From a virus (Duplodnaviria > Caudoviricetes): a stretch of 64,000 bases of DNA. The stretch lies in the IMG/VR virus record IMGVR_UViG_3300005611_000001; one strand, given 5' to 3'. Under the pieces are notes generated by a model. It worked only from the letters and a program-made list of their open reading frames with translations. It was not told where the DNA came from and ran no database searches. The translations under genes were made by a program, and so were the position numbers. Positions 17,747 through 27,061 of this stretch are shown here, one piece after another (the stretch's first letter is position 1; every line of letters begins with the position of its first letter).

Positions 17747-18277
17747 ATGAGTACGCATGAACCTGTTCCGTTTGTAACTTTTAAGACTCGCGTTCGCGAC
17801 GAGTCTGTCGGTGGCGATAATCCTTATCGCTGGCAAGATGTGACCACTGACGATCTGTTCAGTGGCAAGCGCGTGGTTGTCTTCTCGCTGCCTGGTGCGT
17901 TTACGCCTACCTGCTCTACTATGCAGCTGCCTGGCTTTGAAGAGAACGCACAGAAGTTCTATGACGCAGGCATTGACGAGATTTACTGCATTTCTGTTAA
18001 TGACTCGTTTGTGATGAACGCATGGGCGAAGGCTCAGAATCTTAAGCATGTTAAAGTGATTCCTGATGGTTCGGGTTACTTCACTGACGACATGGGCATG
18101 CTTGTCAATAAAGACAATCTCGGCTTTGGTAAGCGCTCTTGGCGCTATGCAATGGTCGTAGACAACGGCATCGTCGAAAAGTACTTTGTCGAGCCTGGGC
18201 GTAAAAATGATTGCGCCGATGATCCCTACGGCGAGACGACTCCCGAAAAAATCATGGCTTACTTAGGTATTGAATAA
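17747..18277 (+). CDS. Peroxiredoxin (Prx5-like)
   Basis: PGAFTPTCS, CISVNDSFVMNAW, RSWRYAMVV. Confidence 0.93.
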   Translation: MSTHEPVPFVTFKTRVRDESVGGDNPYRWQDVTTDDLFSGKRVVVFSLPGAFTPTCSTMQLPGFEENAQKFYDAGIDEIYCISVNDSFVMNAWAKAQNLKHVKVIPDGSGYFTDDMGMLVNKDNLGFGKRSWRYAMVVDNGIVEKYFVEPGRKNDCADDPYGETTPEKIMAYLGIE

Positions 18278-18594
18278 TGGCTGTTGAGCATGAGTTTATG
18301 CTGACCTGGGTCGAGCGTATCAAGCAGTGGCATCATGATCGCAACTTGATCGATGGTGCTACTGACAAAGATCAGGTCTGCAAGTTGATCCAAGAAGTTG
18401 GTGAGTTGAGCGATAATGTTTGCAAGAATCGTGACATCCGTGACGACATTGGGGACATTATCGTGGTCCTAATTAATATTGTTGAGAGGCACAATCTAAG
18501 CTTGACAGAGTGTCTTGAAGTAGCATATAATGATATCAAAGATCGGAAAGGTCGAATGGTCGACGGTATTTTTGTGAAAGAGGATGATTTATAA
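18277..18594 (+). CDS. mazG: MazG-like NTP pyrophosphohydrolase
   Basis: KLIQEVGEL, DDIGD, AYNDIKDRKG. Confidence 0.85.
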   Translation: MAVEHEFMLTWVERIKQWHHDRNLIDGATDKDQVCKLIQEVGELSDNVCKNRDIRDDIGDIIVVLINIVERHNLSLTECLEVAYNDIKDRKGRMVDGIFVKEDDL

Positions 18595-19215: not shown

Positions 19216-19419
19216 ATGTTTATTTCAAAACTTTGGAACAAGGCAATTGATTCTGCGAAGAGCGCAAACTACAAGCGTAGTTTGAAAGTCGCTCTTGTAC
19301 TAGCACCCTTGGTGGTCTGGGAAGTGTTCTTTTATCTTGTGCAGAAGCTGATGGCTGTTTCTGTTTTTGTTGATGATAAGATTGCGCAATTTCTGCGCGA
19401 TTTCGTGGAGAATAACTAA
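19216..19419 (+). CDS. Small membrane protein
   Basis: Hydrophobic segment; coupled to next gene. Confidence 0.5.
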   Translation: MFISKLWNKAIDSAKSANYKRSLKVALVLAPLVVWEVFFYLVQKLMAVSVFVDDKIAQFLRDFVENN

Positions 19420-20195
19420 TGACTACGATTGTAGTTGCGGGTCTTGGTCCTGTTGGTACTGCTGTATCTACAGCGCTTAAGAATCATCCCGATGTAGAAG
19501 TGTTTCTTGACGATCCCTACAAAGGGCATGCGTTTCCCGATGATCGCGTCGAGACTGTCGATGCTGTTGTGGTCTGTGTTGCTACTCCCATGGACGAAGA
19601 CGGCTCTTGTTATACTCAAAACATTTCTGATGTTTTTCGTAAGTATGGCAATGTGAAGTATCTGGTGAAGTCTACGACTAATCCGCTGTTCTTCCGCCAC
19701 TACAATCATCTTGATATCACCTTCAGCCCTGAGTATCTGCGTGGTACGACTGGTGCTGATCCGACTCAGGAGTTTATTCACTCTGAGTTTGCAGTGTATG
19801 GTGGCGGTTCTATGCGCTGGTGGCACGAAGTTTTCGTACCTGTGCTGCCTAATCTAAAAGATGTGCGCTTCATGACTGCAGAGCAGGCTGCGTTTGCAAA
19901 GTATTTCATGAACTGCTTCCTTGCGACTAAGGTGACTTTCTTTAACCAAGCATTTGAGATTTACTCTAAGTGCGGTGGCAAAGACTTCGATATTGTGATC
20001 GACGGGCTGTGTCTTGATCCTCGTGTGGGGCGTTCACATACGCAAGTGCCTGGTCCTGATGGCGCGTTTGGTTTTGGGGGTCACTGCTTTCCGAAAGACA
20101 TGAATGCTCTGATGCGTCTTGGCGAGAAAGCTGGTGCAAATGTTGACTTTATGAAAGCGACGCTTGAGACAAATGAACGACAGCGAAACTCGTAG
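19419..20195 (+). CDS. ugd: UDP-glucose 6-dehydrogenase (compact form)
   Basis: GLGPVG, VCVATP, LVKST, FSPEYLR, AKYFMNCFLATKVTFFN, catalytic GFGGHCFPKD. Confidence 0.85.
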   Translation: MTTIVVAGLGPVGTAVSTALKNHPDVEVFLDDPYKGHAFPDDRVETVDAVVVCVATPMDEDGSCYTQNISDVFRKYGNVKYLVKSTTNPLFFRHYNHLDITFSPEYLRGTTGADPTQEFIHSEFAVYGGGSMRWWHEVFVPVLPNLKDVRFMTAEQAAFAKYFMNCFLATKVTFFNQAFEIYSKCGGKDFDIVIDGLCLDPRVGRSHTQVPGPDGAFGFGGHCFPKDMNALMRLGEKAGANVDFMKATLETNERQRNS

Positions 20196-20343
20196 TTACA
20201 CTCTAGAAGTTCAAGAAGATTCTGACGGGCAATTTCTAGTTCTGCCCGAAGAAGAACTGAAAGCGCTTGACTGGAAAGAGGGTGATGAGATAGAATGGAT
20301 TGATAATTCAAACGGTACATGGACTCTTCGTAAAAAGGTATAA
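20173..20343 (+). CDS. AbrB/SpoVT-like small protein, 56 aa (not in ORF track)
   Basis: Hand translation contains FLVLPEEELKALDWKEGDEIEW. Confidence 0.65.
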   Translation: MNDSETRSYTLEVQEDSDGQFLVLPEEELKALDWKEGDEIEWIDNSNGTWTLRKKV

Positions 20344-20346
20344 GTT

Positions 20347-20571
20347 ATGAGCGATACAAGCGATTACAGTTTGAGAGTTACTTGGGATCAAGTTGATCAT
20401 ATTATCACCAGCGAACTTCGCTGGTCTTATGATAGCATGAAGGCCGATCTTGAAAGGCGTCGAGAAGGTGGAGGTACAGCGATCTTCCATACTGATCTTG
20501 AGCAAGATGTCAAAGCAATAGAAGAGCATGTTCATGCGCTGAAACTTATTCTTGATTGGTTTGGTGGTTAA
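20347..20571 (+). CDS. Hypothetical protein
   Basis: Tiled ORF. Confidence 0.6.
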   Translation: MSDTSDYSLRVTWDQVDHIITSELRWSYDSMKADLERRREGGGTAIFHTDLEQDVKAIEEHVHALKLILDWFGG

Positions 20572-20573
20572 AA

Positions 20574-20581
20574 TATAAATA
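20574..20581 (+). promoter_or_regulatory. T4-type late promoter
   Basis: Exact TATAAATA, followed by 9-bp hairpin 20581-20605 covering AAGG. Confidence 0.65.
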
Positions 20582-20610
20582 GTCTTAAGTTCTTCACTTA
20601 AGGCTGTTCT

Positions 20611-21201
20611 ATGTCTATTGCAGATTTTTTTGAAAAAAATAGATATGCTTATATCAAAAATGCCCTGCCTTTACATAAGTGTGATCAGTATGTAAAGGCA
20701 TTGTGGGCTTCAAAATCAATGAAAAATTGTGCTCAATGTCCAGGCTCTACATCATCATATACCGAGTGGCCGTTGGCTAGAGTACACTACAAAATGGTTC
20801 CTGAACTATCAAGCATTTTAGGCATTGATCTTGCACCAACATACGTTTTTTCTAGAATATATAAAAAGGGCTCTGATTTGGAAAAACACAAAGACCGCCC
20901 TTCTTGTGAGATATCTACAACTTTGACTTTGGGTGTTTCAAATCCAAATTCAAATTGGCCAATATACTTTCAAACAAAAGACGGCAACAAGGCATTTAAT
21001 ATTTCTGTCGGTGATATGGTCGCGTACAGAGGAGAAGAATTGTGGCATTGGCGCGATCCATTACAAGATGATTGGCAAGTACAAGTCTTTTTTCATTTCA
21101 TTGACAAGAACGGTCCTCATTATCCAAAATTTTTAAATGATCGAGGAAGAAACGATAGAATGTATGAATTGGTTGCTGAAAGTTTAAAATTAAATACTTG
21201 A
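20611..21201 (+). CDS. 2OG-Fe(II) oxygenase
   Basis: LEKHKDRPSCEIS (HxD), HWRDPL, QVFFHF. Confidence 0.75.
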   Translation: MSIADFFEKNRYAYIKNALPLHKCDQYVKALWASKSMKNCAQCPGSTSSYTEWPLARVHYKMVPELSSILGIDLAPTYVFSRIYKKGSDLEKHKDRPSCEISTTLTLGVSNPNSNWPIYFQTKDGNKAFNISVGDMVAYRGEELWHWRDPLQDDWQVQVFFHFIDKNGPHYPKFLNDRGRNDRMYELVAESLKLNT

Positions 21202-21217
21202 AAAGAGATGGATTGAT

Positions 21218-21475
21218 ATGGCGATTAGTGAACATGAAAGTGCAAATTATCATGCAATTACTGATGCGATAGTATCTCGTCGTTCTAAAATTAAATGGTT
21301 ATTAAAAATTCATAATGATAATGCATCGAAGTATTTTGATAGTCTTCTTTCTTATGAGTTTCGAAATGAGTTACAAGAGTACGCTGAAGAAATAAAAGAA
21401 TTAGAGATCCTTCTTTGGAAATTTGAATTGCCCTTACCTCCGGAAAAAATTAATCCAGTGGGATACGAAGCTTAA
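21218..21475 (+). CDS. Hypothetical protein
   Basis: AT-rich ORF with SD-like GGA. Confidence 0.5.
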   Translation: MAISEHESANYHAITDAIVSRRSKIKWLLKIHNDNASKYFDSLLSYEFRNELQEYAEEIKELEILLWKFELPLPPEKINPVGYEA

Positions 21476-21530
21476 TCTTTTTTAACATGGAAATAAATTA
21501 TGAAAGCAGGTAAAGTTTGGGGTACTACTG

Positions 21531-21800
21531 ATGACATTGTTCGGAGAACCGTTGGACAAAAAATCGATTGACTCTGATCTAAAAGCCCTGTACTCTTCTG
21601 TGCAGGGCAAAGTTGATCGTCATCTAGTCGAAGCGCTGGCTGATATTCGAAATGGTAAAGACCCCGAGGTTGTGCTGCGTAAGTTCAGCCGACTTGCAAC
21701 AAACACTCTTATTCATGGCCCCACAAAAGTAATTCGCGATCAAGACAATCCTGAACTGATCAAAAAAATCATAGGTATTGAAAATGAAGATAAATCATAG
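21531..21800 (+). CDS. Stand-alone glutamyl-tRNA reductase dimerisation-domain-like protein
   Basis: EALADIRNGKDPEVVLRKFSRLATNTLIHGPTKVIR resembles the HemA C-terminal A..L..G.D.E.VL.....LTNKLLH.PT pattern. Confidence 0.6.
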   Translation: MTLFGEPLDKKSIDSDLKALYSSVQGKVDRHLVEALADIRNGKDPEVVLRKFSRLATNTLIHGPTKVIRDQDNPELIKKIIGIENEDKS

Positions 21801-22874: not shown

Positions 22875-22886
22875 TCGGTTATACTA

Positions 22887-23272
22887 TATACTATAGAACG
22901 CACTGCTTTGATCTAGAAGTGGCAAAGGCTACAATCAGACTAAGATCCCTCCATTAGGAGGGTACGCGGGGGAGGATCCCGCAGGCAGTGCGTCTCTTTA
23001 GAGTATAGATTGGGCAGAGCGAACATAACTTGGAACATAAACTCGTTGCTTCCAAGTGACTGACCGATTCCTAAGCGAGGTGCGGAATCCTAGCAATCTA
23101 TAAAGTCCTAAGGATTTAAAATCCTGGGCAGATTAATCACCGTGCGTGAAACTCGTTTCGGTTTGATTAGCAGCGGGTGGAAGCCCCGCACCTTTTTAGA
23201 ATAGGCACTGAGTATGCTTAAGCATCAGTTAGTCCTGTAGAGTCGCAATCTTGGGCAACAGTGTCTGTTCTA
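22887..23272 (+). ncRNA. Cluster of unidentified structured RNA domains
   Basis: ORF-free; helices 22898-906/22985-993, 23004-012/23094-102, 23133-139/23164-170, 23197-210/23259-272 plus many inner hairpins. Confidence 0.6.
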
Positions 23273-23273
23273 A

Positions 23274-23580
23274 TTTATTCGATGAAGCGGAGAGAAAGGT
23301 GATCTGGACAGAGGTTCAACTCCTCTCACCTCCACCAAAAGCACATACGCTGGATATGCAGATAGCATATTGAGACATAAGAAACATCAGGTATGTGCTT
23401 TTGATGGGGGTGTACTGGTTTCGACAGGTGCTAAGTATCAAAGTGGAGAATCGTCAAGCGCTGACGCTAAACAGAGCAACCTAAAATAAACGCAAACGAT
23501 GACGTTTATACCGAGGACTTTGCGCTAGCAGCGTAAACCTCGCGGGGTTCGCCGGAGCCTTGTTACCCAAGTCCGGCACT
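23274..23580 (+). ncRNA. ssrA: Circularly permuted (two-piece) tmRNA
   Basis: T-arm AGAGG-TTCAACT-CCTCT and CACCTCC-ACCA (ends 23337) lie upstream of the GGGGGTG...TTCGAC 5' end (23406); acceptor stem has G3.U70 and A73; tag ORF 23492-23536 ANDDVYTEDFALAA*; outer boundaries approximate. Confidence 0.9.
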
Positions 23581-23929
23581 AATTCGGAGAAATCTACAAA
23601 TGAAACCATTCAGTCAATACATTACAGAGTATAATGATGAAACTCTTGTGAAGAAGATAAAGCACCCTAGTGGGACCGTTTTAATGATCTCTCGCTACAA
23701 GAACGGACCCGATGAAGGTAAGTACATTGTTCGTGTATCCAAGAGTAATTATGAACGTGGAAAGCAGAATCGCACGATGCGAGCTATACACGATAAGCCT
23801 CTCGATGCAGAAGCAGCCGTCGCCCTTTTTAATAAAAGAAAGAAATCGATCTGGAAGAAAAAATGAAATCATTTCGACAGTTCTTCGCCTGGCGGCGTAA
23901 ACTTCGCGGGGTCGGCACTAATTCGGAGA
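23531..23929 (+). repeat. Direct repeat of tmRNA-gene 3' end flanking one ORF
   Basis: 23531-48 vs 23895-912 (17/18 identical) and 23574-90 vs 23913-29 (17/17). Confidence 0.8.
23600..23866 (+). CDS. Hypothetical basic protein with capsid-targeting-like N-terminus
   Basis: MKPFSQYITE; SD GGAG. Confidence 0.6.
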   Translation: MKPFSQYITEYNDETLVKKIKHPSGTVLMISRYKNGPDEGKYIVRVSKSNYERGKQNRTMRAIHDKPLDAEAAVALFNKRKKSIWKKK

Positions 23930-23935
23930 GAGTGA

Positions 23936-24625
23936 GTGCGAACATTACTGATTAGTGATGTACATATTGGGTTCAAGTTTTCTAGAGCCAAAGATGCAGT
24001 GACTGTTCTTGAAAAAGAAAAGTTTGACAGACTGATATTAGTTGGTGACATTTTTGATATTCAAAATATGATGCATCGTGCATACTGGGATGAACATCAC
24101 ACTGCCTTCCTTAAGAAAATCCTCAAACTGGCTAAGAAAAAAGAAGTCATTTATGTAATTGGCAATCACGATTATCCTCTCTATCATCTACAAGAATACA
24201 CCAAGAAAATAGCAGGCATTCATCTATGCCGAGAGTACACTTACACTTCGGGTGACAAGACAATTCACTGTGTTCACGGTGACCAGTTTGATTCTGTCTC
24301 GCGCAAGATTCAAGTTCTTGGTGATTTCTTCTATAATATGCTTCTGCATCTAAATCGTTTGATTGGCAGAATTCAGACACTGTTCGGATTCAAGTATCGC
24401 TCTTTTAGCAAGTGGTGCAAAGACAAGGTTAAGAACACGATCAGCAAAGCATTCTCAATTGAAGAGAAACTGCATGCAATAGATAATGTTGATGTTGTGA
24501 TTTACGGGCATACTCATATGCCTTATATTAGCGACACTCTTATCAACACGGGCACCTTTGTTGAGATTGCAACTTATGTCATTGAAGAGAACGGTGTGTT
24601 CGAACTAAAGGATTTGGATAAATGA
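23936..24625 (+). CDS. PlcP/LpxH2-like metallophosphoesterase
   Basis: ISDVHIG, LVGDIFD, GNHD, VHGDQFD, SFSKWCKDKVK, YGHTH, INTG. Confidence 0.8.
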   Translation: MRTLLISDVHIGFKFSRAKDAVTVLEKEKFDRLILVGDIFDIQNMMHRAYWDEHHTAFLKKILKLAKKKEVIYVIGNHDYPLYHLQEYTKKIAGIHLCREYTYTSGDKTIHCVHGDQFDSVSRKIQVLGDFFYNMLLHLNRLIGRIQTLFGFKYRSFSKWCKDKVKNTISKAFSIEEKLHAIDNVDVVIYGHTHMPYISDTLINTGTFVEIATYVIEENGVFELKDLDK

Positions 24626-25335
24626 AAGATTTGGTGACTATTGTAGTCCCTTGTAAGAACGAAGAAAAGTATATTCAATACTTGCTGTGTCATTTAGCCT
24701 CACAAGAAGATGCAAAGGGTGTTCGGATTATCATTGCGGATGCTTCGACCGATTCTACGCGTAGAATCATAAAAGAGTACGGTAAACTGTACGAGTTGAA
24801 TTATGAGATTATCGAAGGCGGTCCTGTGTCTGTCGCGAAGAATAATGGTGCTGCGCTGGTCAAGACTCCATATACTTTGTTTATCGACGCTGATGTACAA
24901 TTCTTTTCAAGAACAGTAATCAAAGATACTATTGCTCAGATGATCGACGAAGACCTTGATTTAATTGGTCTGAATATCAAATGCTACGATAAAGACATTG
25001 TGGCTAAGATTGGATTCTTCTCTTTCAATATCGTCAATCGTATTATGTCGAACTTTATTCCGTTCGCAGTAGGCGCTTACTTTCTTACGAAAACATCAAA
25101 GTTCCGTGAACTAGGTGGATTCCCAAATAAGTATGTTACGAGCGAAGATTTCTTTTTAAGTAAGATGTACGATCATAAACGATTTAGAATCGCAAAACAT
25201 TATTTTGGGCAAGATAGTAGGCGATTCAAGAAGATGGGATATTTTGGTATGCTAGGATATCTTATCCAAAACTTCTTGAATCGCAACAATAAAAAGTATT
25301 GGGAAGAGAAAGACTTCTCTAAGTACTGGGACTAA
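24622..25335 (+). CDS. Glycosyltransferase family 2
   Basis: IVVPCKNEE, IIADAS, AKNNGA, FIDAD, LGGF, SEDF. Confidence 0.85.
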   Translation: MKDLVTIVVPCKNEEKYIQYLLCHLASQEDAKGVRIIIADASTDSTRRIIKEYGKLYELNYEIIEGGPVSVAKNNGAALVKTPYTLFIDADVQFFSRTVIKDTIAQMIDEDLDLIGLNIKCYDKDIVAKIGFFSFNIVNRIMSNFIPFAVGAYFLTKTSKFRELGGFPNKYVTSEDFFLSKMYDHKRFRIAKHYFGQDSRRFKKMGYFGMLGYLIQNFLNRNNKKYWEEKDFSKYWD

Positions 25336-25641
25336 CTATTTGAGATAAGTTACTTGCTCAACTCTACACATTTGAGTTTCGCCATTTACGCTCATTTCGA
25401 AATGTGCATTCTTATGAACTCTGCTTTGCTTAATGCCAAACTTCGTTCTTTCATCAAAAACGATTGACACAGAAGCACCTTCTAAGTTATGATTGTTGCA
25501 TGTATGATCAATTTCCCACGCAGCATTTCGATCCGAAACATATATCTTTTCTGATCCAACTTGCCAAGTTTGCGATTGTTTTACGGGAAAGTTTGCATAT
25601 GCGCACGGTGTTAAGAGTAATATAAGTAGTAATGCTTTCAT
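25336..25641 (-). CDS. Secreted protein, the only credible minus-strand gene
   Basis: Start reassigned to MKALLLILLLTPCAYA (signal peptide) with GGAG SD; two Cys in mature part. Confidence 0.55.
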   Translation of the reverse strand: MKALLLILLLTPCAYANFPVKQSQTWQVGSEKIYVSDRNAAWEIDHTCNNHNLEGASVSIVFDERTKFGIKQSRVHKNAHFEMSVNGETQMCRVEQVTYLK

Positions 25642-25699
25642 GGTTATACTCCATATTAACTGAGTGTATATAGTATATATACGAAATGAGACTTTCATA

Positions 25700-25855
25700 A
25701 TGCATAAAAAAGAAAAAAATGACCAATTACTGGTCAAGATCAATAAAGAGACGAAGAAGAAGTTTATCGAACTTTGTGAGAAAGACGATACTACTGCGAG
25801 CCGAGAAGTTCGAAAGTTTATCGAACGATACATTGAAGGCTTTATTGACGAATGA
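25700..25855 (+). CDS. Ribbon-helix-helix (CopG/Arc-like) DNA-binding protein
   Basis: QLLVKINKETKKKFIELCEKDDTTASREVRKFIERY. Confidence 0.6.
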   Translation: MHKKEKNDQLLVKINKETKKKFIELCEKDDTTASREVRKFIERYIEGFIDE

Positions 25856-26079
25856 CTTTAGAGCAACTGATCGAAATAGCCAAAGAAGTCGAGGTTGCTG
25901 ATCCCTTTGACTGGGCGGATGTGGCTATCGGCGAAGACGAAGCGTACCGTCTCATGGCGATGAATTTGATAGGCGAAGACTTGACACCAGAGATCATGCT
26001 TGCTACAATTGTGAAGTTGTGTGTTGAGAACCTTGTGCTGAATCTGAGACTGTTGCAAAATGAAACCAAAGTTCCTTAA
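25852..26079 (+). CDS. Hypothetical acidic protein
   Basis: Coupled ORF. Confidence 0.6.
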   Translation: MTLEQLIEIAKEVEVADPFDWADVAIGEDEAYRLMAMNLIGEDLTPEIMLATIVKLCVENLVLNLRLLQNETKVP

Positions 26080-26545
26080 TGCTTTTATGGATACCGCGCA
26101 TCGCTTTGCGCAACTGAGTACTGCTCGCCGCGCCAAAGTCGGCGCTATTATCGTCAAAGACTCTCGGATCATATCCATCGGCTACAACGGCATGCCTGCA
26201 GGCTGGGACAACAACTGCGAGCATGAAGACTGGCCAGACTGGATCGAAAACAACCCCAAAGCACTCCGTGACCCGGCTTACCTGCGTCTCCAGACGAAGG
26301 ACGAGGTACTTCATGCTGAGACTAATGCTATTGCAAAGGTAGCGCGTAGCGCTGAATCCTGTGAGGGTGCGACGATGTTCTGCACTCACCTACCCTGCAT
26401 TCAGTGTGCCAAACTGATCTACCAGAGCGGCATCGCATGTGTCTATTATGATAACGATTATCATTCAGCGGTAGGTGTCGGCAAAGAGTTTCTGCTACGC
26501 TCAGGCGTACGCACGATCCACTGGCCAATGAAATCAATGACTTAG
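26060..26545 (+). CDS. cd: dCMP deaminase
   Basis: KVGAIIVK, SIGYNG, LHAETNAI, PCIQCAK. Confidence 0.93.
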   Translation: MKPKFLNAFMDTAHRFAQLSTARRAKVGAIIVKDSRIISIGYNGMPAGWDNNCEHEDWPDWIENNPKALRDPAYLRLQTKDEVLHAETNAIAKVARSAESCEGATMFCTHLPCIQCAKLIYQSGIACVYYDNDYHSAVGVGKEFLLRSGVRTIHWPMKSMT

Positions 26546-26593
26546 CGGGCTGACGAACGGGCATTGACAATCCATGGTCGGATATGAGATAAT
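26532..26593 (+). promoter_or_regulatory. Early sigma70-like promoter with upstream IHF-consensus site
   Basis: AATCAATGACTTA 26532-44; TTGACA 26564; GATAAT 26588. Confidence 0.6.
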
Positions 26594-26620
26594 TCTCATG
26601 TATTTGGTCTGGAGATACCT

Positions 26621-27061
26621 ATGATCGATATCACCATTCAAGGTCGGATCAAGAACAAGTCTCTTGTCCGATTCTATATCGAATCCCTCATTCACGAGCT
26701 TGGCATGGGTAAGATGCGCAAGCCTGAGATTCTGGTCAAGTTTCGTACTAACGCTGGTGGCGCGTTCGGGCTGTGTGACGGCGCGAAGGGTGAGTACGCT
26801 GTCATCCACATCGCTCGTACCTGCCCTATCACTCAGCGCAAGCTTGGCTTTCTTGAAATGATGCAGACTCTCGCCCACGAAATGGTGCATGCGCGCCAGT
26901 TCATTCGTGGTGAGTTAAAGAACGAGTGTGGCTGGGCATGGAAGGGGCGCAGGGCTGACGGCTACAACTATGACAATCAGCCCTGGGAAAAAGAAGCGTT
27001 TCGTCTTGAAAAGAAACTATTCATGAAGTGCTTCCCTCACTTTGCAGACTTCACTAACTAA
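26621..27061 (+). CDS. HExxH metallopeptidase-like protein
   Basis: TLAHEMVHARQ, QPWEKEA. Confidence 0.65.
   Translation: MIDITIQGRIKNKSLVRFYIESLIHELGMGKMRKPEILVKFRTNAGGAFGLCDGAKGEYAVIHIARTCPITQRKLGFLEMMQTLAHEMVHARQFIRGELKNECGWAWKGRRADGYNYDNQPWEKEAFRLEKKLFMKCFPHFADFTN

Follow-up and report, generated by a model that had tools for sequence, protein, structure and literature searches.

Why a phage would carry, as a gene of its own, what appears to be only the part of glutamyl-tRNA reductase (GluTR, HemA) through which that enzyme dimerises is the question raised by the locus considered here. The window, that is, the whole stretch of 64,000 nucleotides (64 kb) analysed, comes from an uncultured, aquatic T4-like phage; its PHROG matches include a gp46-like SbcC, the gp43 DNA polymerase, the gp41 helicase, NrdA and cytidyltransferases, and gp47 is also among its T4-like genes. 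The DNA polymerase is at most 56% identical to those in 50,697 phage records, the best match being Phage C48C1, followed by cyanomyophages at ~49%. The original prediction, which had picked out a peptide corresponding to residues 35-69 of an 89-aa open reading frame, proposed that the frame encodes a GluTR (HemA) dimerisation domain standing alone in a phage, and this proposal is borne out by Pfam, hhalign, tblastn and phage gene content.

Identity and predicted structure of the domain

The reading frame of the domain gene (Table 1) opens at 21504, directly after a TGA, and its first ATG is at 21531, upstream of which no clear Shine-Dalgarno sequence was found in any of the copies compared at this site. 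Gene calls on other contigs start at the TTG codon and give 82-aa forms beginning MDKKS or MGKNS, and the true product of the domain gene is probably either 89 or 82 aa long.

Table 1. Positions of the domain gene and of features close to it in the window
Feature	Coordinates	Strand	Description and basis
Cupin remnant, 24 codons	21500..21574	+	First 10 and last 13 codons plus a junction codon; aligned with related loci L001 and L002
Stand-alone GluTR dimerisation-domain homologue gene	21531..21800	+	89 aa from ATG 21531; ORF list and sequence
Possible alternative start of the domain gene	GGAG 21543-21546; TTG 21552-21554	+	GGAG, 5 nt, then TTG; 82-aa product
Downstream gene, 97-99 aa	21778..22077	+	ORF lists; 44% identity to L010
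Next small gene, 74 aa	22052..22276	+	From ATG 22052; 76% identity to L010 copy
Permuted tmRNA	23245-23627		1.5 kb downstream of the domain gene; ARAGORN and Rfam; tag ANDDVYTEDFALAA

The HMM search by which the original prediction could be checked, with Pfam PF00745 (GlutR_dimer), gave the 89-aa protein 32.4 bits (E 1.2e-7, profile positions 13-84 of 99), above the gathering score of 22.9 bits, and GlutR_dimer is the sole Pfam family that the protein matches. Four other members of the phage family exceed the same cut-off independently, with 27-35 bits (P0001 scores 34.7, P0033 28.6 and P0023 27.3 bits), and P0004, a protein described below, scores 39.5 bits. Two bacterial HemA controls matched GlutR_N, Shikimate_DH and GlutR_dimer, with 68-81 bits for GlutR_dimer and 160-178 bits for GlutR_N. 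The match of the phage protein lies far beyond chance. It is also confined to one end of the enzyme: the NCBIfam hemA equivalog models are matched only at model positions ~333-403 of ~415, and a profile of the phage family aligned end to end by hhalign, over 86 columns, with a profile of 39 proteobacterial HemA C-termini (the last ~90 residues), at a probability of 99.1% and an E of 1.9e-18. When species-representative genomes were scanned with the pattern TN[TK]LIH[GKA]PT, 380 matches were confirmed, and in all 80 of those retained the match is C-terminal in an ORF 417-540 residues long, barring a few cut by contig ends.

With six full-length HemA proteins as tblastn queries against the whole 64-kb window, only residues ~330-445 matched, and only at 21537-21797, so that the domain stands alone. 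The catalytic domain GlutR_N (PF05201), which holds the nucleophilic Cys, is absent from the 89-aa protein by Pfam and from the 64-kb window by tblastn with the six HemA proteins; the NADPH-binding Rossmann domain Shikimate_DH (PF01488), present in the bacterial controls, is absent from the ORF by Pfam and from its flanks by tblastn. Lacking the catalytic and NADPH-binding parts, the phage protein is therefore unable to reduce Glu-tRNA, and the JGI automatic name of its close homologues, 'glutamyl-tRNA reductase', is misleading for these small proteins. Longer, fused relatives were not found among 5.8 billion proteins at E <= 0.001, which is weak evidence. The phage protein is a homologue of the C-terminal dimerisation domain of proteobacterial GluTR (HemA).

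An AlphaFold2 model of the phage protein, built on a 47-sequence alignment (pLDDT 77), has helices at 10-40, 45-71 and 74-80 and a disordered stretch of nine residues at its start. For comparison we modelled the HemA of Microbulbifer, chosen as the best bacterial match, on an alignment of 40 HemA sequences (pLDDT 86); it has a spinal helix from ~296 to 363, the invariant Gly365 in a turn, a return helix at 368-396 with a kink at His385-x-Pro387, and a last helix at 400-410. Residue n of the phage protein corresponds to Microbulbifer residue n+323, and the spinal-helix stretch 337-363 lines up with phage helix 10-40. According to these models, the phage protein would span the final ~30 residues of the spinal helix, then the turn G-x-D-P-E, the return helix, which carries TN-x-LIH-x-PT, and a last helix that is shorter than in HemA.

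Comparisons with experimental structures depended on the profile that was used. A HemA-dominated profile clearly matches PDB entries 1GPJ, 4N7R and 4YVQ, aligning the region to residues 319-402 of the M. kandleri GluTR 1GPJ and to the plant GluTR dimerisation domain, including 4YVQ. The phage-only profile reached 1GPJ at an E of 0.085 only, ranked below designed repeat proteins, and a single-sequence search of PDB chains with the phage protein gave no GluTR match. Foldseek against the PDB and VIA-align against 48,161 chains returned generic helical hairpins, with a best Z of 7.2 and no GluTR among the matches listed; the fold is too small for this outcome to be informative, and it neither supports nor contradicts a GluTR fold.

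Relatives, selection and origin

The domain is not confined to the window. Twenty-four homologues of 81-91 aa, with 79-100% identity and the same boundaries, are present in JGI, ENA and Logan assemblies, and a HMMER search of 1.84 billion representatives found a diverged small relative, P0001, of 85 aa and 54% identity. DNA was recovered for eleven loci, of which L001 and L005 are one contig held in two collections; among these, the locus L010 represents a 54%-identity lineage in which the ends, the motif and the neighbours of the domain are the same as in the window. Between the window and L001 the domain gene differs by 14 synonymous and 7 non-synonymous changes (dS 0.33, dN 0.044), dN/dS is 0.1-0.2 among copies outside the region that overlaps the cupin gene described below, and synonymous exceed non-synonymous changes between more diverged copies as well. 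The domain gene is protein-coding and under purifying selection.

These data bear on whether the gene has a function at all, since the protein could be the decaying left-over of a captured hemA or a helical look-alike that arose by chance. The protein is short, its 32-bit Pfam score is far below the 68-81 bits of the bacterial domains, and the structure searches were non-specific, with PDB GluTR found by the phage-only profile at no better than the E of 0.085 already given. Against this, the hhalign match of 99.1% probability extends across the whole length, no hemA remnants flank the domain gene, dN/dS is low, synonymous changes outnumbering non-synonymous ones by up to 14 to 7, and two lineages at 54% identity have kept the same ends and motif. 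The low dN/dS and the ends, motif and neighbours shared with L010 indicate that the gene is not a decaying fragment, and we regard a functionless sequence as very improbable.

Several other small proteins found in the course of these searches proved to be of a different nature. The same HMMER search returned three 89-aa pieces that resemble HemA C-termini; P0005 (89 aa) was rejected as a small relative, being identical to the C-terminal end of a full-length HemA in an uncultured Pseudomonadales genome, as were P0008 and P0009, which resemble C-terminal HemA pieces and lie on contigs of 0.9-1.6 kb. The long hits P0002, P0003, P0006 and P0007 were repeat artefacts, each the sum of many ~5-bit matches. 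A second, unrelated-looking GlutR_dimer-only protein of 89 aa, P0004, lies on a 28.8-kb Logan/ENA contig and carries the full LTNKLIHAPT motif (PF00745 score as above). The 'phage' records that it matches either have a full hemA among their annotated genes or are not annotated at all, and are presumably host DNA in prophage-style records.

Within 50,697 phage records neither the domain protein nor the upstream cupin had a tblastn match, and the locus had none by megablast; in IMG/VR this clade is represented by two contigs only. The cassette is therefore specific to rarely sampled aquatic T4-like phages. A full-text literature search found no paper on a viral GlutR_dimer protein.

As to what the phage copies have kept of the bacterial domain, G42, T57, N58, L60, H62, P64 and T65 are invariant across the phage and bacterial sequences and L49 is nearly so, bearing in mind that the bacterial HemA set was chosen by a TNKLIH-motif pattern, so that invariance within the motif is partly by construction. 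The phage copies also keep E46 and V48 of the bacterial motif G-x-D-P-E-x-V-L ... L-T-N-K-L-(I/L)-H-x-P-T, while in every one of them the Leu of LTNK is A/T56 and its Lys is T59. At sites with 85% or more conservation in the HemA set and a different residue in the phage family, the changes fixed in both lineages are R to Y/F21, L to A/T56, K to T59, A to Q71 and G to E75. Eight residues are deleted before the last helix, and the phage domain lacks a Lys that never varies in the HemA set and an Arg that hardly ever does.

Overall, the phage domain is 25-36% identical to any bacterial HemA domain found. The closest bacterial sequences in this motif-selected set are from Microbulbifer, Halieaceae and other Pseudomonadales, Moritella, Vibrionaceae and Burkholderiaceae. 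Maximum-likelihood analysis places the phage clade alone on a branch of length 7.6, with no resolved sister, and no donor can be named on account of this very long branch. The domain was captured long ago from a hemA of gamma- or betaproteobacterial type and has diverged since.

Gene neighbourhood and host type

Directly upstream of the domain gene, an intact cupin gene of 120/121 aa is present in 10/10 related loci, including the 54%-identity lineage, and in all ten the end of the cupin gene and the beginning of the domain gene share 41 nt, which are read in different frames, the domain frame being +1 relative to that of the cupin. The cupin scores 25.3 bits against Pfam Cupin_2, just below the cut-off of 27.2, and also matches phrog_7851. 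In the window the cupin gene has an in-frame deletion of ~291 bp between short CTGA repeats (compared with L001:7676-8041), which looks recent; the 3' end of the remnant overlaps the start of the domain gene, which is itself intact.

Downstream, the gene of 97-99 aa, whose first 17-23 nt lie within the domain gene, is syntenic in L010 and has no Pfam or PHROG assignment; beyond the 74-aa gene lie a 66-aa gene, signal-peptide-like, and then a 77-aa gene. These four downstream genes are syntenic in L010 with identities of 44-76%; the domain has 54% and the cupin 85%. The block as a whole consists of small genes on the + strand between a terminator-like hairpin at 19341-19364 and the RNA island that precedes the tmRNA, and in a scan for promoters and terminators sigma-70-like sites were not enriched.

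This arrangement raises the possibility that the domain now serves phage proteins as a general module for pairing, which would form a homodimer or bind the cupin or the products of the downstream small genes, with no relation to GluTR or heme. The 41-nt overlap in all ten loci and in both lineages, the restriction of the cupin and domain genes alike to this phage clade, the synteny of the downstream genes and the loss from the phage domain of residues nearly invariant in HemA would all be in keeping with such a role. However, the window phage has deleted its cupin while its domain gene remains intact at 99% identity to cupin-bearing copies, from which it may be argued that the domain can act without the cupin; the cupin and the domain, conserved at 85% and 54%, are not evolving in step; and the HemA-specific TN-x-LIH-x-PT and the G-x-D-P-E turn are strictly kept, which would be unexpected if only generic helix packing counted. 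We consider a pairing module of this kind unlikely.

The surrounding region is a hotspot of gene exchange, to judge from the loci compared. L010 (3160-5896, compared with window 22880-27061) lacks the part of the window (~22880-25336) with its small-RNA island, its tmRNA and its genes for phosphoesterase and glycosyltransferase, and passes straight to the genes around dCMP deaminase that the two have in common. A block equivalent to window ~20340-21490 is replaced by other DNA in L002.

Other genes of the region were also inspected. The 196-aa gene at 20611-21201 was considered as a ferrochelatase, and hence as a link to heme, and was rejected, there being no Pfam ferrochelatase match. Its protein matches PHROGs labelled 'ferrochelatase', a label that cyanophage records bear too, and among named Atlas clusters the closest to it are those of 2OG-Fe(II) oxygenases, including one that is called 'putative ferrochelatase'; it has an H-x-D...H look. 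The 'ferrochelatase' label on this 2OG-oxygenase-like protein appears to be a propagated mis-annotation. The 258-aa protein encoded at 19419-20195 resembles UDP-glucose dehydrogenase; it contains a Rossmann motif and GFGGHCFPKD, the active-site cysteine motif, and ends after the central (dimerisation) domain, without the C-terminal UDP-binding domain (PHROG positions 72-295 of 382). Upstream of the small-gene block lie a peroxiredoxin-like (Redoxin) gene at 17747-18277 and, after it, a small MazG-like gene at 18277-18594 that is just under the Pfam cut-off; these two are further auxiliary-type genes.

With regard to the host, the permuted tmRNA scores 113.9 bits against Rfam RF04321 (tmRNA_permuted) and 81.9 bits against beta_tmRNA, just below the cut-off of 84. 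This near-threshold betaproteobacterial match is a possible clue to host type, and such an affinity would be consistent with a host dependent on the GluTR (C5) route. If the host were instead an alphaproteobacterium, with the Shemin pathway, there would be no GluTR for the phage protein to bind.

Possible action on host GluTR and comparison with known systems

Moser et al. reportedly described GluTR in 2001 as a V-shaped dimer that is joined by the dimerisation domain, and are said to have proposed that it channels its unstable product to glutamate-1-semialdehyde (GSA) aminomutase. The phage protein may pair with the dimerisation domain of host GluTR in place of the second GluTR chain, and would then be a poison subunit of the 'microProtein' type. 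Mixed pairing would break the V-shaped dimer that is proposed to pass glutamate-1-semialdehyde to GSA aminomutase; less 5-aminolevulinate (ALA) and heme would be made, and phage production could draw on the Glu-tRNA(Glu) and NADPH that are saved. The decoy or modulator function put forward in the original prediction is plausible, and the anatomy of the protein would fit it, with no catalytic parts, a helical core that is kept and changes that are fixed in the lineage. The domain gene also sits among small overlapping genes typical of T4-like host-takeover regions. In contrast, with an identity of 25-36%, a long branch and the loss of the Lys and Arg, its fit to the host GluTR interface would not be assured.

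Taken as a whole, the chain in which the phage domain replaces one GluTR chain and lowers ALA synthesis is our tentative reading, held at somewhat under an even chance. A further possibility, although a rather doubtful one, is that the virus governs the first committed step of bacterial tetrapyrrole synthesis by means of a piece captured from the target itself and not by an enzyme: mixed dimers of the free domain and host GluTR would decide, in the infected cell, whether Glu-tRNA(Glu) goes to heme or to translation. Published work gives these steps some precedent. The plant inhibitor FLU acts via the GluTR dimerisation domain, and the isolated domain is stable and has been crystallised with FLU (PDB 4YVQ; PMC4726326). 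Fragments of bacterial proteins are able, by way of native interfaces, to inhibit in vivo the proteins from which they derive (PMC11831152). It has also been hypothesised that phages gain by diverting Glu-tRNA from tetrapyrrole synthesis to translation (PMC11480375).

The effect on the enzyme could also be of the opposite sign. The protein might bind host GluTR or a docking factor and so protect or activate GluTR, the phage domain blocking a negative regulator or the proteolysis of the enzyme, and thereby keep up the supply of ALA and heme for heme-using enzymes of the phage. The exchange of one catalytic chain of a dimer is more simply inhibitory, and to our knowledge no bacterial regulator docks on the GluTR dimerisation domain, which counts against activation. 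On the other side, phage tetrapyrrole genes such as those for ALA synthase, heme oxygenase and bilin reductases have been read as keeping up tetrapyrrole flux (PMC11480375), and the plant dimerisation domain is a docking site for FLU, a factor of the kind that a free copy of the domain could soak up (PMC4726326). We regard activation or protection as distinctly unlikely; as to the direction of effect, inhibition is preferred and seems roughly twice as probable as stabilisation or activation.

Compared with the GluTR dimerisation domain itself (PF00745; 1GPJ, 4N7R, 4YVQ), the phage protein is colinear over ~86 residues, shares in its predicted structure the three-helix layout and the return helix with its H-x-P kink, and has the G-x-D-P-E turn and TN-x-LIH-x-PT. 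It differs in being free-standing and phage-encoded, and in its five fixed substitutions, its 8-residue deletion and its identity of 25-36%. The microProteins and other dominant-negative proteins, exemplified by the plant LITTLE ZIPPER and the animal Id proteins and, among fragments, by the inhibitory ones studied in E. coli (PMC11831152), offer a second comparison: the phage protein is likewise small (82-89 aa) and single-domain (PF00745 only), the parent proteins have 417-540 aa, and non-productive dimers would be expected. However, those examples mostly hit transcription factors or were made in the laboratory, while here a virus carries the fragment, a metabolic enzyme is the parent and the binding is putative. 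If our reading is true, no viral 'microProtein' before this one would have had a metabolic enzyme as its target; the protein would also be, if GluTR is bound, a ready-made natural inhibitor or probe of an enzyme that is absent from animals.

FLU resembles the phage protein in that ALA synthesis is controlled via the GluTR dimerisation domain, which shows this domain to be a regulatory handle (PMC4726326); it differs in being a TPR membrane protein of unrelated sequence that binds the outside of the dimerisation domain and replaces no subunit. The phage tetrapyrrole genes (vAlaS, heme oxygenase, PcyA/PcyX/PebS; PMC11480375) likewise come from the host tetrapyrrole pathway and are found in aquatic phages, and the benefit proposed here for the phage domain, control of ALA supply and sparing of Glu-tRNA, is the one discussed for vAlaS (PMC11480375). 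Unlike these, which are complete active enzymes, the phage domain is non-catalytic and could have an effect only by binding. Should our reading hold, phages would have a second route by which to steer the tetrapyrrole pathway, a host-derived fragment acting by binding where the known phage genes are whole enzymes, and the idea that Glu-tRNA is spared for translation would become directly testable with one 89-residue protein.

The cyanophage CP12 and the T4 proteins Srd and Srh, the latter two resembling parts of sigma factors, are small proteins made early by phages, and they redirect the machinery of the host through binding and not through catalysis. They differ from the phage domain in their targets and folds, and none of them concerns tetrapyrrole synthesis. 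Host-derived phage genes that steer host metabolism and small binding proteins are thus both known already; what would be new is a free dimerisation domain of a metabolic enzyme used in this way.
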